Shown piece by piece: positions 24,582-36,828 of a stretch of DNA of 64,000 bases. Origin of the DNA: a virus (Duplodnaviria; Caudoviricetes). The notes under the pieces were generated by a model. The model was not told the DNA's origin. It ran no database searches and saw only the letters and a list, made by a program, of their open reading frames with translations. Numbering within the stretch: the first letter of the stretch is position 1; each line of letters starts with the position of its first letter. The translations under genes and the position numbers were made by a program. The stretch lies in IMG/VR virus record IMGVR_UViG_3300028275_000007. One strand, 5' to 3'.

Positions 24582-25634
24582 TTATCCTAGAGTTAATGCA
24601 AATGCAACAGAAATATCATTAGCCTGTGTTTCTGACACAGCTCCAGATGCACCTGCAGGACTAGCCCAAGAAACTCCGTCCCAAATTTCCAAAGCCTTTG
24701 AATTAGTATTATATCGTGTCATTCCGACAACCGCATAAGATGTTGGACGCTGCGCATCATTTCCTCTTGGCGGAACAAACCCATTGGTACCAACAATTTT
24801 AAGATAACCATTACCTGTATGGGTAATTGTTGTAACAGCACCGGATACTACGTTAGTAATAGAACTATCAATAATTTTAATATTACCAGTTCGTATACCT
24901 CCCGCAGCATTTCCTTCTAATCGCAAATCTGTACCAGTTGTGGTAGTAATTATGTTATCTTGAAAAATAACACTTCCTACTTCAAAATAAGGAAGGTTCA
25001 TTGAAGTAGTATATAAATCTTTAGTGTAAACAGCTCTCCATCTTACTGAACTAGAACCAATATCATATGTAGCATCAGTTTGAGGAATAATATCACTAGT
25101 AACGCTGGCATTAAAAACAATGTTATCGGTTAGTGCGTCACCAATTTGAATGTTGCCGCCGATCACTACATTTCCAGAAGTATTAATATTTCCAGAAACA
25201 TCAAGATTTCCTGTAATATTTGTACTTGCTGAAATATTAACTGTGCCGGTACCGTTTGGTGCTAGATCAATTGAACTGTTAGAAACAGTAGTAGAAATAG
25301 TATTTCCTTGTAATTGAAGATCATCAATTTGAAGTCTGCTGTGATAAACAGTTGCTTCGCCGGCAGCGGCTTGAAATACTATTGTGCTGGTATCGCTGGT
25401 AATTGTATTGCCAGTAAAGTGTAAATTACCGACATTAATTTGTGTGTCAACAGTATGATTTATACCGTGTATATTACCGTTGACATCTAGGTCTGTAGTG
25501 GGGGCTGCTGTACGTATCCCGATACGAGAGTTAACAACATCCAAATAGAGAAGATCAGTCTCAAAAGCTAAATCCACACCATCTCTGATGAGATTTGACT
25601 TTAAGAGCTGACCGGAAATACGACCAATAGCCAT
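24582..25634 (-). CDS. Fibre-like virion protein, 350 aa, hydrophobic C-terminus (VAFALTLG)
   Basis: GRISGQLLKSNL.RDG.D.AFETDLLYLDV.N.R shared with 25786..26919; C-terminal G.TRYNT...LE.WDG..W module; strong AAGGAG RBS. Confidence 0.75.
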   Translation of the reverse strand: MAIGRISGQLLKSNLIRDGVDLAFETDLLYLDVVNSRIGIRTAAPTTDLDVNGNIHGINHTVDTQINVGNLHFTGNTITSDTSTIVFQAAAGEATVYHSRLQIDDLQLQGNTISTTVSNSSIDLAPNGTGTVNISASTNITGNLDVSGNINTSGNVVIGGNIQIGDALTDNIVFNASVTSDIIPQTDATYDIGSSSVRWRAVYTKDLYTTSMNLPYFEVGSVIFQDNIITTTTGTDLRLEGNAAGGIRTGNIKIIDSSITNVVSGAVTTITHTGNGYLKIVGTNGFVPPRGNDAQRPTSYAVVGMTRYNTNSKALEIWDGVSWASPAGASGAVSETQANDISVAFALTLG

Positions 25635-25760
25635 TAGCTCTCCTTAACAGACCCCGTGTTTCACGGTTAACCTAATTTGGACTAACGTCCGCAGCCTTAT
25701 GGCTCTTTGCTGGTTTACCACAGTCGGATCTTGCAAAAGTTTTGGTCTACCTTTGCAATT
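25635..25760 (-). ncRNA. Candidate structured 5' leader RNA with a possible pseudoknot
   Basis: Five short hairpins in ~125 nt between a TATAAATA promoter and the RBS; loop AGACC can pair with GGTCT beside the RBS (see findings). Confidence 0.5.
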
Positions 25761-25765
25761 AGTAG

Positions 25766-25773
25766 TATTTATA
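25766..25773 (-). promoter_or_regulatory. T4-type late promoter (TATAAATA)
   Basis: Exact consensus upstream of the structured leader. Confidence 0.7.
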
Positions 25774-25785
25774 CCAAATGGAGAA

Positions 25786-26919
25786 TTAGCCGAGGACTAG
25801 GGTCCAAATGTTTCCAATATCGTACATAAGTTCTTGTGTAACTTCGATACCACCACCTGTTGCCACTGACCATACAGTACCATCAAAACATTCCAGGTAC
25901 CCTCTTTCTGTGTTGTATCTAGTTTCACCTACTTCTGGACTTAAAGGACGTTCGCTATCGGATCCGTTAGGAACAACCATACCGTTTGTACCGGTAAACT
26001 GAATGTATCCTATTCCTGTAGACTGTAATAATAAAGGATTGTTTTCTGGATTTATTATAGCATTTTCGTTAAATGCAATTTTTTCTAAGTATGTGTCTGC
26101 TGAATCGGCGGTTATTATTAAATCTTCATTGGACTGTGTTGTTGTAATTGTAGTTGTAACACCGTTAATTTCTACTTGATCACTGATATAAGCATAAGAC
26201 GTATGGATACCTAATCCTGAATTTCCTATCGAAGTCCAATCAGATTGATAAACTTTATCCCAACGCTTTGTAGGTTTCCCTAGATCATAAACTTCATTGT
26301 TACCTAAGACAATTGTTTGAGTAAAATCGGTATTAATACTAGCAGTATCAGTAGTTTGGTCACCGATAGTTAGAGTACCAATTCCTGTTAAATCTCCCTG
26401 TAACGTTATGTTCCCTGTTACAGTTAAATTTCCTGTAATGTTTGTGTCTGCAATAAAATTAACTTTGCCTGTTCCGTTAGGATCAAATACAATATTTGAA
26501 TTGCTAATACTGCTAATTTGATTATCGTTGAATATTAAACTGCTGGTAGTTAATCTATCGTGAAAAATATCACTTCCGGCTATCATAACCTGTATGCCGC
26601 CAACTGAAGTTGTAAATGTATTTCCGTTATTAATTTTAAGATTTCCAGCAATTAACTGTGTATCAACAGTTAAATTATGGCTATGAATATCTCCGTCTAC
26701 ATCTAAGTCGTAGGCAGGCGGAGATTTTTTTATACTAACTCGTTTATTTGTAACGTCAAGGTATAATAAATCAGTTTCAACAGCGATGTCAATGCCGTTT
26801 CTTTGTAGGTTAGCGGTTAATAATTTTCCACTAATTCGGCCAAGCTGAGACGAATAATTAGGTTCACTACCGTAGGTGTTTGAACCTAATAGACCGTCAT
26901 CATCGCCCAATATACCCAT
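25786..26919 (-). CDS. Fibre-like virion protein, 377 aa (paralog of 24582..25634)
   Basis: LGRISGKLLTANLQRNGIDIAVETDLLYLDV and GETRYNTERGYLECFDGTVW. Confidence 0.75.
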   Translation of the reverse strand: MGILGDDDGLLGSNTYGSEPNYSSQLGRISGKLLTANLQRNGIDIAVETDLLYLDVTNKRVSIKKSPPAYDLDVDGDIHSHNLTVDTQLIAGNLKINNGNTFTTSVGGIQVMIAGSDIFHDRLTTSSLIFNDNQISSISNSNIVFDPNGTGKVNFIADTNITGNLTVTGNITLQGDLTGIGTLTIGDQTTDTASINTDFTQTIVLGNNEVYDLGKPTKRWDKVYQSDWTSIGNSGLGIHTSYAYISDQVEINGVTTTITTTQSNEDLIITADSADTYLEKIAFNENAIINPENNPLLLQSTGIGYIQFTGTNGMVVPNGSDSERPLSPEVGETRYNTERGYLECFDGTVWSVATGGGIEVTQELMYDIGNIWTLVLG

Positions 26920-30273: not shown

Positions 30274-30340
30274 TTGTTTTCTCCTTGTGTTGACGTTCTA
30301 GGCCTACGCGGTGGGTGCCGCATAAATCACTTAGATACTT

Positions 30341-30348
30341 TATTTATC
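30341..30348 (-). promoter_or_regulatory. Late promoter variant (GATAAATA)
   Basis: Immediately after the gp23 terminator and upstream of 29890..30273. Confidence 0.55.
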
Positions 30349-30357
30349 CAGCCAAAC

Positions 30358-30381
30358 AAAAAGCCCCTTTCGGGGCTTTTT
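30358..30381 (-). terminator. Rho-independent terminator after the major capsid gene
   Basis: AAAAAGCCCC-TTTC-GGGGCTTTTT. Confidence 0.85.
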
Positions 30382-30408
30382 GAATACGTTGTATAATCTT
30401 TTTAAAGA

Positions 30409-31584
30409 TTAAGCAAAACGTAGGTTTGCAGATGTAACATCAACAAGAGCCAAGTAGTCAGCAGCATTACCTAGAGATGATGCTGTGTTTGTTAACTCAA
30501 CATAACCGTATCTGGTCATGAAAGAAACTACTGGTTCAAATGTAGATGGATCTAATACAACACCGCTGCTCATCAATGGAATGTATGGGCAGTAGAATGC
30601 TGCTGCGTCAGACTCGGAAGTACCTTTGTAACCAATCAATACTTTGTCGTCTTCTGCGTATGTGTTTACATACACTTTCATTGCGCTGTTCAATGTACCA
30701 ACGAACTTGGTGTTTGTTGGAGCTTCGAAAGTGCCTTCTGTAGTGCGAGCAAAAGCAGAAGTTGTAGCAGACTGTAATAGTGTTAATACAGTTGGTGATA
30801 CAACAGCCCAGTTACCTGCGCCACGACGTGTACGTTGTGCGATCAAGTTAGAAGCACGGTTGATTTGAACAGCTAGAGCAGCGTGTTCGTCACCAACGAA
30901 TGTAGCTGTACCAGAAACTGCTGCTTGGTCGTATGTTAATACGGCTGTACCAGCTAGTGTCTTCAAGCTACGTAGAACTTCTTGATCAATCTCAGCTGTG
31001 ATCTCTTGTGCAAGAGCAGCCATGATTTCTGCTTCGATGTCAATACCTTGTTGGGCTTGTGCATCTTGAGCAGCTTCAAATGTCCAGCGAGCAGACAACT
31101 TACGTGTCTTAGCTTCGACTGTTTGTTTCAAGATTTGAATGCTTAGTCTGTTACCTGCTACGCCTTCTAAAGCTGCTGTAGAAGCTGCCTTATCAGAACC
31201 AGATACACCAGAATAGCCTTCAGCAATCTTGAATGGGCTTAGTGCCTCATCGCCAGCTGTAGTGTTACCACCAGCAGAACCACTGAATGTGTCGCTGTAG
31301 CGAACACGTAGAGTATGGATCTGACCAACTGGGCCTGTCATTGGTTGTACACCAACTAGTTCATTAGCAATGACTGTTGGCATTACACGTCTGATCACAG
31401 GTAGGATCACACGATTTAGGGTTGCAACGTTACCGGCGGAAGTAGCACCAGCTGTAGCACTCTCTGCCAAATACTTGCGGGTATTCTCTAGAGTAGTTGC
31501 CATAACTGTACGCTTGTTACCTTGTAGGCCTTCTAATAGAGCCTCTTTAGTTTCCGACCAGCGTGACTCGAGTAGTTGTGACAT
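30409..31584 (-). CDS. gp23: Major capsid protein, T4 gp23 family, 391 aa
   Basis: VIRRVMPTVIANELVGVQPMTGPVGQIHTLRVRY, VEAKTRKLSARWT.EAAQD, EIMAALAQEITAEIDQE, FYCPYIPL, FMTRYG. Confidence 0.96.
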   Translation of the reverse strand: MSQLLESRWSETKEALLEGLQGNKRTVMATTLENTRKYLAESATAGATSAGNVATLNRVILPVIRRVMPTVIANELVGVQPMTGPVGQIHTLRVRYSDTFSGSAGGNTTAGDEALSPFKIAEGYSGVSGSDKAASTAALEGVAGNRLSIQILKQTVEAKTRKLSARWTFEAAQDAQAQQGIDIEAEIMAALAQEITAEIDQEVLRSLKTLAGTAVLTYDQAAVSGTATFVGDEHAALAVQINRASNLIAQRTRRGAGNWAVVSPTVLTLLQSATTSAFARTTEGTFEAPTNTKFVGTLNSAMKVYVNTYAEDDKVLIGYKGTSESDAAAFYCPYIPLMSSGVVLDPSTFEPVVSFMTRYGYVELTNTASSLGNAADYLALVDVTSANLRFA

Positions 31585-34903: not shown

Positions 34904-35114
34904 ACATTTGTCTAATAAAACCCAGTTCAGACTCTTCTTCCATTTGATGCGCTTCTGATTGAAGTCGCAATTGATTAATTTGACGTAGTGTCAAGCGAAT
35001 TTTTCTATTATCTGTTAACTTAAGAATAGACTTATCTCTGCTAGAGTCGTATCTACGATCATTAGCAAAGTCGTTGTTTTTTTCGTTAAAATAAAAAAAT
35101 TCGTTTAGAAGCAT
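34863..35114 (-). CDS. Small head-module protein, 83 aa (MLLNEFF...)
   Basis: Start moved to ATG 35114, just after the portal stop; basic RKIRLTLRQINQLR segment. Confidence 0.7.
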   Translation of the reverse strand: MLLNEFFYFNEKNNDFANDRRYDSSRDKSILKLTDNRKIRLTLRQINQLRLQSEAHQMEEESELGFIRQMYGTPVGEEAAPPQ

Positions 35115-35118
35115 AATG

Positions 35119-35126
35119 TATTTATT
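35119..35126 (-). promoter_or_regulatory. Late promoter variant (AATAAATA)
   Basis: Overlaps the portal stop, 4 nt upstream of ATG 35114. Confidence 0.4.
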
Positions 35127-36828
35127 ACTGAACTGGTGCTTCTGCTGGAGCAGCTTCACCTTCGGCTCCTGGTTCGGCTTCAGCAGCCATATCAGGACTA
35201 GCTTCTGCTGATTGTCCAGCTAGGTCTGCTGCCATTCCTCCGGGAGTAATGCCTGCAGATCTTAATTGACTCTGAGAATCCGGTGTTGCCTGTAGAGTAT
35301 CGCCGTTTTCTTCTCTCCAAAGTTTTTCGTTTTCTTTGATCTCTTCCTCGGTCATTCCTAAGAATCGCTTCATAGCAAAACGTTTACTTAGATGAGGAAT
35401 TTGAACAACTTGACTGAATGTTGCTGCTCTTGCTGTGTCAAGTTCTGATTGACGATAAGCAGCAAAGTTTTGTGGTGAATTAAATTTTAGCTCAAATAAA
35501 CTATTATCAATGTTAATACCGTTGTTGTTTAACCAAAGTTTAAATTCTAGATCAAATGTTTCTACAATCATAGATTGTAAACGTTTGCAGTACTCGTTAA
35601 AACGTAATTCTTGAATATACGCTGTGCCTACTTTACCATCAGAGATGTTGTTAGGCTGTTCATCAATGGCAGTAGGAAGGTATGAAGCAGGTATACGCAA
35701 AGCCCTAAAGAGCTTGTTAGTAAAATAACGTAGGTCAGTAATTTCGCCAAGGTTGGTACCTCCAGGTAGTGTTTCAACTTTAGAACCACGACCTTCAGCA
35801 GTTTGTGGGAAGAAGTAATCTTCGTTTACACTTAGTGGATTATAACTAGCGTCTATAACGTTATTTCCACCGCCGGTTGAACTAGGAATACGTCGTTGTT
35901 GAATTTCATTTTTAACCCGTTCAACAAAGCTCATAGCCATATGCGCTGGCATATTTCCAACGTCTACATAGAAAATACGTCTTTCTGGAGCACGTTGTAT
36001 ACGATAGATAATAATAGCATCTTCAAGCAATTCTTTCTGCTTGTAGACTTTAAATACTGATTCTAGAATACTATTACCAAAAGGATAATTTGTATCTAAA
36101 CCTTCTGATAATGAAATATGGACTACGTGTTTTGCATCAACTGTGATTTCGTTTTGTGCATTACTAAAACGTGTGCCAGGAGGCTGTGCTGCTGCACCAA
36201 CCATCCCTCGGCCAAAGCCTCCGCCGGATGTGTAAGAGCTTGAACCACTAGGTGATGTGTTAGTTGTATTGTGTGGTGTTGTAGCAATTAAATTTACAAA
36301 ATTAAAGTTAATATCTTTAATTCCGTACTGCTCAGGAACTTTACCTTCGCTTTCGTTAACAATAATTTTATTAACCTTAGAAGGATCAACATATAACCAT
36401 TTTTGAGTTTGTGGATCTCTAACAAAGAAACAATCTCCGTATTTTAATGTGTTACGGAAAATACGGAAAATTCTAGTTTCAAACTGCTGTTCTTTAACCC
36501 ACTTTTGTAGTGCGTCTTTTAAAATTTTAACTTCGGTTGAAGTAGGCGCACCTTTAAAAAATGTCTGGAATGGTGTGCGATTTTCTTTATCTTTTTGTGT
36601 GCAAAATTCTGCAAGAATATCAAGTGCAGCATTAACTTCACTGTCCATATCCATTGTATCGTATTGCATATATTTTTCAACACGGTTTGGACTACCTGCA
36701 TAAACATCCGGTAAAAAGCTAGAATAATTTGCTCTAGCAGGACCCGGACGGCCACGGCCCGAAATTGGGCTCATTGAACCTCCGTTGTTGCTAACATTAA
36801 CAGGTGTAAAGTATTTTTTCCAACTCAT
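35125..36828 (-). CDS. gp20: Portal vertex protein gp20, 567 aa
   Basis: MDMDSEVNAALD, LLEDAIIIYRIQRAPERRIFYVDVGNMP, EDYFFPQTAEGRGSKVETLPGG.NLG, LFRALRIP.S. Confidence 0.95.
   Translation of the reverse strand: MSWKKYFTPVNVSNNGGSMSPISGRGRPGPARANYSSFLPDVYAGSPNRVEKYMQYDTMDMDSEVNAALDILAEFCTQKDKENRTPFQTFFKGAPTSTEVKILKDALQKWVKEQQFETRIFRIFRNTLKYGDCFFVRDPQTQKWLYVDPSKVNKIIVNESEGKVPEQYGIKDINFNFVNLIATTPHNTTNTSPSGSSSYTSGGGFGRGMVGAAAQPPGTRFSNAQNEITVDAKHVVHISLSEGLDTNYPFGNSILESVFKVYKQKELLEDAIIIYRIQRAPERRIFYVDVGNMPAHMAMSFVERVKNEIQQRRIPSSTGGGNNVIDASYNPLSVNEDYFFPQTAEGRGSKVETLPGGTNLGEITDLRYFTNKLFRALRIPASYLPTAIDEQPNNISDGKVGTAYIQELRFNEYCKRLQSMIVETFDLEFKLWLNNNGINIDNSLFELKFNSPQNFAAYRQSELDTARAATFSQVVQIPHLSKRFAMKRFLGMTEEEIKENEKLWREENGDTLQATPDSQSQLRSAGITPGGMAADLAGQSAEASPDMAAEAEPGAEGEAAPAEAPVQ

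Follow-up and report, generated by a model that had tools for sequence, protein, structure and literature searches.

Why should a tightly packed block of phage structural genes make room for a long untranslated stretch between two fibre-like genes? The question is posed by a 64,000-nucleotide piece of DNA from a Caudoviricetes virus (IMG/VR record IMGVR_UViG_3300028275_000007), which in its full length is called the window here. On its minus strand a gap of 151 nt (25635-25785) separates the fibre-like genes 25786-26919 and 24582-25634. An earlier note on this DNA had proposed that the gap holds a pseudoknot-capable, possibly switchable leader, exceptional in so compact an operon and placed between paralogous genes. 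The last two of these points are borne out: gaps in the structural block mostly measure 3-15 nt, with no more than two others longer than 100 nt, and the two flanking genes are paralogues with 38% identity over their full length, the leader preceding the second of them. The two other long gaps have features of their own. That at 30274-30408 (minus strand) contains a terminator-like GC hairpin with a T-run, followed by ATAAATA at 30341-30347, and that at 34904-35124 (minus strand) has ATAAATA at its end (35119-35125).

The gene that follows the leader (24582..25634, minus strand, ATG at 25634) encodes a fibre-like virion protein of 350 aa with the conserved N-terminus MAIGRISGQLLK. This protein matches only phage families without an assigned function, and its neighbours in a protein atlas are viral clusters, some of them with PTL_trimer, Laminin_G_3, DUF1565 or PKD domains; searches of PDB and NCBIfam with it yielded no name. 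The window phage, which derives from a riverine metagenome, is T4-like, with a gp23 capsid gene at 30409-31584 (minus strand) and a gp20 portal gene at 35125-36828. The closest cultured relatives of its capsid protein are the jumbo phages Sinorhizobium phage Phosso (72%), Vibrio phage 2.275.O (71%) and PA5oct (67%). Some of the other contigs that bear the leader motif are 195-357 kb long, and together with the jumbo-type capsid this suggests that the leader family may be largely a jumbo-phage element.

That the gap forms an RNA structure beyond what chance would give is upheld by the window copy itself, which folds with z = -2.5, a value equalled by one of 200 shuffles, and by its relatives. 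A search with the downstream protein recovered 72 viral contigs, about half of which carry a clearly similar leader upstream, and a pattern search for the invariant core in viral and metagenome collections added many further copies. After parsing, there are 147 distinct copies on viral and metagenome contigs, with river, lake and marine viromes as their habitats, and each of the 147 is followed by an ORF that starts M-x-(I/V/L)-G-R-I-S-G. The proteins so linked span 83-2461 aa and have diverged to 30-50% identity across lineages. A covariance model built from 143 copies scores the window leader at 120.5 bits (E 5e-29), with nothing in the rest of the 64 kb better than E 0.49, and gives one strong match in each of 94 loci. 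Two loci show weak second matches of 27-28 bits (L094, 6381-6431, minus strand; L301, 193-246, plus strand), which may be look-alikes of the promoter and ribosome-binding site only.

The earlier note did not recognise the family and had suggested an Rfam scan. At gathering thresholds the 4227 models of Rfam 15, among them ribozymes, riboswitches and phage leaders, matched the whole window only at 44142-44279, and at E values up to 10 the 301-nt leader region returned only a 10-bit noise match on the opposite strand. The one hit outside the leader is a full-length Polynucleobacter-1 RNA (RF01718; minus strand; 106 bits against a threshold of 37), which sits in the gap between the ORFs 44292-44726 and 42011-43783. 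Among 50,697 records of cultured phages neither the leader nor the gene had a match at the DNA or protein level. When the covariance model was run on Phosso, Vibrio phage 2.275.O and PA5oct it found nothing convincing, the best score (19.5 bits) being a promoter and ribosome-binding-site look-alike, and our literature searches turned up no description of the leader. Judged from these comparisons, the leader is a conserved, structured RNA family without an Rfam 15 match, carried by uncultured T4-like aquatic phages, in which a late promoter leads into one fibre-like gene.

What structure do these RNAs share? Over the family alignment the covariation score is 0.364 as against 0.130 in shuffles, with none of 500 reaching it; overall 82% of cells are paired, as compared with 65% in shuffles and about 40% when the partners are slid. 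Compensatory changes are present in each of four helices, P1 to P4. P1 is the hairpin TTGCAAAGG/CTTTTGCAA (25758-25731, minus strand, as for all elements below), in which a 9-bp stem (25758-25750 paired to 25739-25731) carries a loop of 10 nt. Each of the eight pairs modelled varies in a compensatory manner, with as many as six pair types, and 84% of cells are paired; the GACC at the centre of the loop is nearly invariant. The single-stranded segment ACUGUGGU (25724-25717) that separates P1 from P2 is invariant in all 143 aligned members. P2 (25716..25669) closes a multi-helix junction by pairing AACC (25715-25712) with GGUU (25672-25669); A25716 faces A25668, and the helix is extended by a pair A25711-U25674 across the bulged A25673. 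Pair counts in P2 (AU 133, UA 7 and CG 3 at one position, with none unpaired; AU 103 and GC 29 at another) and at the extra pair beyond the bulge (CG 48, AU 30, GU 9 and GC 7, again with none unpaired) mark it as a strongly covarying helix, the last of these being the top mutual-information pair of the alignment. Inside it lies the junction GCAAAG (25710-25705), of which GCAA is invariant. As both ACUGUGGU and GCAA belonged to the search pattern, their apparent invariance is inflated in the pattern-seeded set; ACUGUGGU is also conserved in 36 members found through the protein alone, and GCAA likewise holds in the protein-seeded set.

The remaining helices are modular. P3 (AGCC-AUAA-GGCU, 25704-25693) is an optional hairpin found in 76 of the 147 members, with stems highly variable in sequence and length that nevertheless keep their pairing, and with frequent GNRA loops; the other 71 members constitute a short form with 1 nt in its place. 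Like those of P1, the stems of P3 show no sequence conservation. P4 comes in two types. Type A, which in the window is CCGUG-AAA-CACGG (25666-25654), has a covarying stem with CCG..CGG in 71 members and CGG..CCG in six. Type B, GGGA-CAGGA-UCCC, occurs in 61 members, with compensatory GCGA/UCGC in three more and GGCA/UGCC in one. The short and the long form each occur with either P4 type. The type-B loop ACAGGAU, together with the GGA of the ribosome-binding site some 12 nt further on (for example in L036, 3829-3973), presumably resembles the paired GGA sites of CsrA/RsmA; type A lacks this feature.

Against this architecture the sequence elements listed in the earlier note all lie where it had placed them on the minus strand, including AGACC at 25748-25744 and GGTCT at 25653-25649, but only part of the fold drawn from them survives. 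Three of its hairpins are P1, P3 and P4, conserved with covariation; a fourth, GGAC-GUUA-GUCC (25690-25679), is a lineage-specific insertion outside the family core, represented elsewhere by GGA-GAAA-UCC (L043, L054, L078, L090 and L135); and P2 had been missed. The proposed TGG-TAAA-CCA hairpin conflicts with the strongly covarying P2 and finds no support as a feature of the family. Nor is the two-state switch between TCCG/CGGA and the GGAC/GTCC hairpin conserved, as it needs both that hairpin and the GATCCG linker, present in only part of the family.

The pseudoknot, too, has to be redrawn. It had been suggested that the P1 loop pairs through AGACC with GGUCU just upstream of the ribosome-binding site, and that an alignment upstream of MAIGRISG homologues would tell. 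Such pairing can form in the window, but unlike the stems it is not conserved: in 128 relatives, the mean contiguous helix between an 8-nt stretch of the loop and the region from P4 to the ribosome-binding site is 3.5 bp, as against a mean longest helix of 6.2 bp with codons 2-5. The alignment instead identifies UUGGUC in codons 3-5 as the conserved partner of the loop sequence GACCAA. In the window GACCAA (25747-25742) faces 25627-25622, within the strand UUGGUC(G) (25627-25621) that spans the codons AUU GGU CGU at +8 to +14 from the A of the AUG. Across the family 86-89% of these cells are paired, and substitutions in the core are wobble-compatible only.

Several departures from the common sequence keep the complementarity. 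In L182 the loop reads GUCCAA and the gene UUGGAC, a double compensatory change at a synonymous site, and in one clade (L050, L103, L285) the strands are swapped, the gene having GGCCAA at codons 2-3 and the loop UUGGUC or UUGGUU. The flanks covary as well, with GACCG facing CGGUC in L123, L125 and L189, and GACCUA facing UAGGUC in L076, L107 and L116. The loop base 3' of GACC and the third base of the preceding codon form U:A in six cases against 2.4 expected and G:C in three against 0.4. These variants occupy about 4-5 separate clades when placed on a quick-search tree built from residues 15-150 of the downstream protein. Comparing native with swapped partners by duplex energy gave counts of 328 and 359 in 2000 permutations, with too little variation among members to discriminate. 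Other partners for the loop fared worse. Pairing with the UGGU of ACUGUGGU gives a mean helix of 4.65 bp and no rescue in L182 or the strand-swapped clade; GGUY in the linker directly after P1 is available in only 27 of 128 members and would be clade-specific at most; and a second GGUC at codons 8-9 gives a mean helix of 4.2 bp. A shift of the L050 partner to the P3 loop is ruled out, as L285 has no P3, and the true partner is the GGCCAA at codons 2-3. The pseudoknot is not universal, however: three members without P1 (L133, L165, L208) and a 9-member clade with a short P1 devoid of GACC keep both the core and the GGUCG codons. Therefore the core is universal and the pseudoknot an accessory that is not indispensable, and for the same reason the pseudoknot does not fully explain the codon bias described below.

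This bias in the first codons ties the leader to its gene. Gly4 is GGU in 142 of 147 leader-linked genes (97%), as against 41% in the background of the window phage, and Arg5 is CGN in 143 of 146 (98%, background 46%). Further on, Pro9 is CCG in 92% (background 11%), Leu10 is CUC in 115 of 142 (81%, compared with 2% of the phage's Leu codons) and Lys12 is AAG in 82% (background 24%). In 52 paralogues that lack the leader the corresponding peptide is mostly written with AGA and UUA: Arg is CGN in 17 of 48 (35%) and AGA or AGG in 31 of 48, and Leu is CUC in seven of 48. The window's own upstream paralogue spells GRISGKLL as GGC CGA AUU AGU GGA AAA UUA UUA. This contrast between leader-linked and leaderless genes argues that the first 12 codons are under RNA-level selection specific to the leader-linked ones. 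The GGU-C portion of the bias can be attributed to the pseudoknot, which does not account for CCG-CUC-UUA-AAG.

The ribosome-binding site AAGGAG lies at 25645-25640, and GGAG is found 5-9 nt 5' of the start codon in 145 of 147 members. GAGAGC (25642-25637) forms the purine-rich spacer side of this region (25645..25637). Codons 8-12 of the window gene (GGU CAG CUC UUA AAG, 25613-25599) are held on rare codons and include GCUCUU (25608-25603, +27 to +32), which is complementary to the GAGAGC/GGAG of the ribosome-binding region; a minimum-energy fold of the transcript with the start of the gene does pair GGAGAGC with GCUCUU. In the family alignment no covariation between the ribosome-binding region and codons 8-13 was found, and a pairing of the ribosome-binding site with GCUCUU is thus suggested by the folding model. 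Across 140 loci the homologous codons are frozen on the rare codons CCG CUC UUA AAG, and complementarity to the ribosome-binding site is the sole lead for them, with no covariation-backed pairing.

Conservation that runs from the promoter through the leader into the first codons, followed by proteins that differ greatly in sequence and in length (83-2461 aa), is also what one might see if the DNA itself acted as a linker that helps phages to exchange fibre modules by recombination, with the RNA structure being incidental. However, the pairing-preserving compensatory substitutions in four helices and the pseudoknot point to selection on a folded single strand, and P1 and P3 are maintained without any sequence conservation, which makes this explanation a very improbable one.

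How is the leader expressed? Immediately upstream lies the predicted T4-type late promoter TATAAATA (25773-25766), from which a transcript start is expected at about 25759-25760, so that P1 begins 1-3 nt after it. All 146 members with enough upstream sequence have TAAATA, 6-8 nt 5' of P1 or, where P1 is absent, directly 5' of the core. Within the window HTAAATA is depleted about three-fold (23 copies against 76 expected), and most coding-strand copies of ATAAATA stand just ahead of genes, a pattern as expected if the motif is avoided except as a late promoter. It is because of this depletion and placement that we read TATAAATA as a probable late promoter. A further motif, UCUCC at 25779-25783 (minus strand), lies between the upstream stop codon and the promoter and was considered as a block to the ribosome-binding site on read-through transcripts, but with TCC in only 62 of 140 relatives it is not general.

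The gene is covered by RNA-library contigs from four runs, of which two end at 25743/25744, one ends at 25632 and one spans the gap, with a higher depth downstream of the leader. These are assembled contigs, possibly including DNA, which show neither starts nor strand, and their ends at 25743/25744 and the downstream depth give a weak hint of a late start. In a further observation, a 5.5-kb contig of RNA run X19 shares just the 22-nt P4 region (25651-25672) with the window and then continues into the short-form core of another phage's copy, so that the river sample must contain two or more phages with the motif.

The same contigs bear on two other explanations. The earlier note had left the choice between a translational operator, a riboswitch-like element and a small ribozyme. 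A conserved pseudoknotted cis element is what the family indicates, and the ribozyme is the part of that proposal that falls away. A self-cleaving or processing site that trims the late mRNA could be imagined from the contigs of two runs that end inside the P1 loop; but contig ends cannot show RNA ends, these fall where coverage would be expected to fade near the transcript start, and the fourth run's contig spans the site. Moreover, no Rfam ribozyme model (hammerhead, twister, pistol, hatchet, HDV-like) matches at E values up to 10, the order of conserved bases is on inspection unlike that of the hammerhead or other known catalytic cores, and the 71 members of short form lack the partial CUGA(A/G)AA that follows P3. 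We consider cleavage hardly credible. To an equal degree we discount a separate small RNA gene with a trans-acting product. A promoter of its own and a stable fold would suit such a gene, but no terminator separates the fold from the ribosome-binding site, the fold extends into that site and pairs with codons of the gene, and one RNA-library contig continues from the leader into the gene.

Taken together, these features lead us to propose that the leader and the first ~12 codons form one cis-acting RNA unit on the late transcript, a translational operator that would close the initiation region in a pseudoknot and respond to an effector; we put the probability of this reading at roughly one half. 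The parts of the predicted unit for which the alignment supplies covariation are the 5'-terminal P1, the core (ACUGUGGU, P2, the GCAA junction, the optional P3 and P4) and the pseudoknot of the P1 loop with the codons. At +8 to +14 this pseudoknot would occupy mRNA that the 30S subunit must hold single-stranded, and it could thereby limit or gate initiation. If the ribosome-binding site also pairs with GCUCUU, crossing the first helix, a double pseudoknot would surround the start codon. An effector that either stabilises the closed state or opens it might then dock on the core at its unpaired, invariant bases. This effector would most likely be a protein, a candidate being the unassembled fibre's own N-terminal domain or an assembly partner, so that synthesis would be tied to assembly. 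Whether the outcome would be repression or activation is gauged from the geometry of the model only. Most likely, then, the leader controls the amount of fibre-like protein made.

It is conceivable that the same fold works constitutively, with no effector, holding translation of a low-copy virion protein at a set, probably low, rate, while the 5' hairpin protects the late mRNA from decay that depends on the 5' end. Stem-loops at the 5' terminus stabilise bacterial and T4 mRNAs, and P1 lies in just such a terminal position; the neighbouring paralogues have no promoter of their own, which makes a separate dosage setting plausible; and no conserved, mutually exclusive alternative fold exists. Yet about 20 invariant unpaired bases and a junction of three helices, retained while the proteins have drifted to 30-50% identity, are more than simple stabilisation or attenuation would require, and specific recognition is suggested by the two P4 types, which are interchangeable and have conserved loops. 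On balance we find a constitutive element unlikely, albeit one to be taken seriously. A specific effector is favoured by the unpaired bases, which are invariant, and by the leader's strict association with a single gene family.

If there is an effector, it might be a small molecule or ion, with ACUGUGGU/P2/GCAA/P4 as the aptamer of a new riboswitch class and the pseudoknot of the P1 loop with the codons as its expression platform. Small pseudoknotted riboswitches have a compact junction, invariant unpaired bases and a pseudoknot to the initiation region, and the leader, with its optional P3 and frequent GNRA loops, displays the covarying helices and invariant junction bases that are generic to riboswitches. 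Riboswitch classes, however, normally precede several functionally related genes, and all 147 copies precede a single family encoding a structural protein without a metabolic link, rather than several genes with one theme; the leader pairs with the gene's own codons, and no conserved alternative fold was found in the family. Autogenous operators such as the leaders of ribosomal-protein operons are linked to one gene family and pair with its own codons. An operator is favoured over a riboswitch because of precisely this tie and this pairing, so that a protein is the more likely effector than a metabolite, and we hold the riboswitch proper to be improbable.

More tentatively, for we lean somewhat against it, the leader may represent a new regulatory RNA class of uncultured T4-like, partly jumbo, aquatic phages, whose core ACUGUGGU/P2/GCAA/P4 would sense either a small molecule or the unassembled fibre protein and gate one receptor-binding fibre through the pseudoknot at codons 3-5. 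If this were true, a phage could tune the fibre make-up of its virions, and hence adsorption, to the state of assembly or the physiology of the host. To our knowledge phage structural operons seldom contain structured cis-regulatory RNAs, and we know of none described before tail-fibre genes. Being abundant (at least 147 distinct copies), modular and supported by covariation, the leader is a candidate for a new Rfam family, and its link to the coding sequence is tight, with synonymous codons frozen across lineages. The GACC/GGUC pairing offers a concrete model, testable by mutation, for translational control of a host-recognition protein. In the annotation of uncultured phage genomes the leader also shows where a fibre gene truly starts and where its late promoter lies.

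The leader probably represents a new family of structured cis-regulatory RNAs whose general kind, the pseudoknotted translational operator or riboswitch-like element, is known. The feedback that it would provide has a counterpart in the scaffolding protein of phage P22, where translation is coupled to assembly in that the unassembled protein turns down its own mRNA; no such RNA element is known to be described there, and the shared logic would at most be an analogy of function. Like the preQ1-II and SAM-II/V riboswitches, in which the ribosome-binding site is sequestered, the leader is a small junction and pseudoknot RNA that reaches into the initiation region and has invariant unpaired bases, but it differs from them in matching no model, in its single structural-gene context and in having a pseudoknot strand inside the gene. 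Another comparison is with the T4 genes e, soc and I-TevI, in which a late start removes half of an inhibitory hairpin and unmasks the ribosome-binding site. There, as here, a late promoter immediately 5' of a structured leader decides the structure of the 5' end, but the whole structure of the leader lies 3' of the late start, and the late transcript itself would carry the closed fold. The leader of T4 gene 32 likewise belongs to a T4-type phage and contains a pseudoknot in the service of translational self-control: gp32 controls its own synthesis, with the pseudoknot, situated far upstream of the start, nucleating cooperative binding along unstructured RNA. It has no sequence similarity to the present leader and, unlike it, does not pair with the coding region.

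The nearest parallel in working is perhaps the leader of the E. coli alpha operon (rpsM), which has reportedly, in work by Tang and Draper (1989) and later, been recognised as the pseudoknotted translational operator of S4 (Rfam Alpha_RBS). The two differ in that there is no sequence or model similarity between them, and in that the present leader precedes a phage fibre-like gene rather than rpsM, belongs to a phage late mRNA and possesses an extra conserved junction core (ACUGUGGU, P2, GCAA, P4). In both, however, the loop of an upstream hairpin pairs just 3' of the start codon (here at +8 to +13), a (double) pseudoknot encloses, or in the phage would enclose, the ribosome-binding site together with the start codon, and the element is tied to one operon, whose translation it controls or, here, would control. 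By analogy, the pairing of the P1 loop 3' of the start codon suggests an S4-operator-like mode of working rather than membership in that family.
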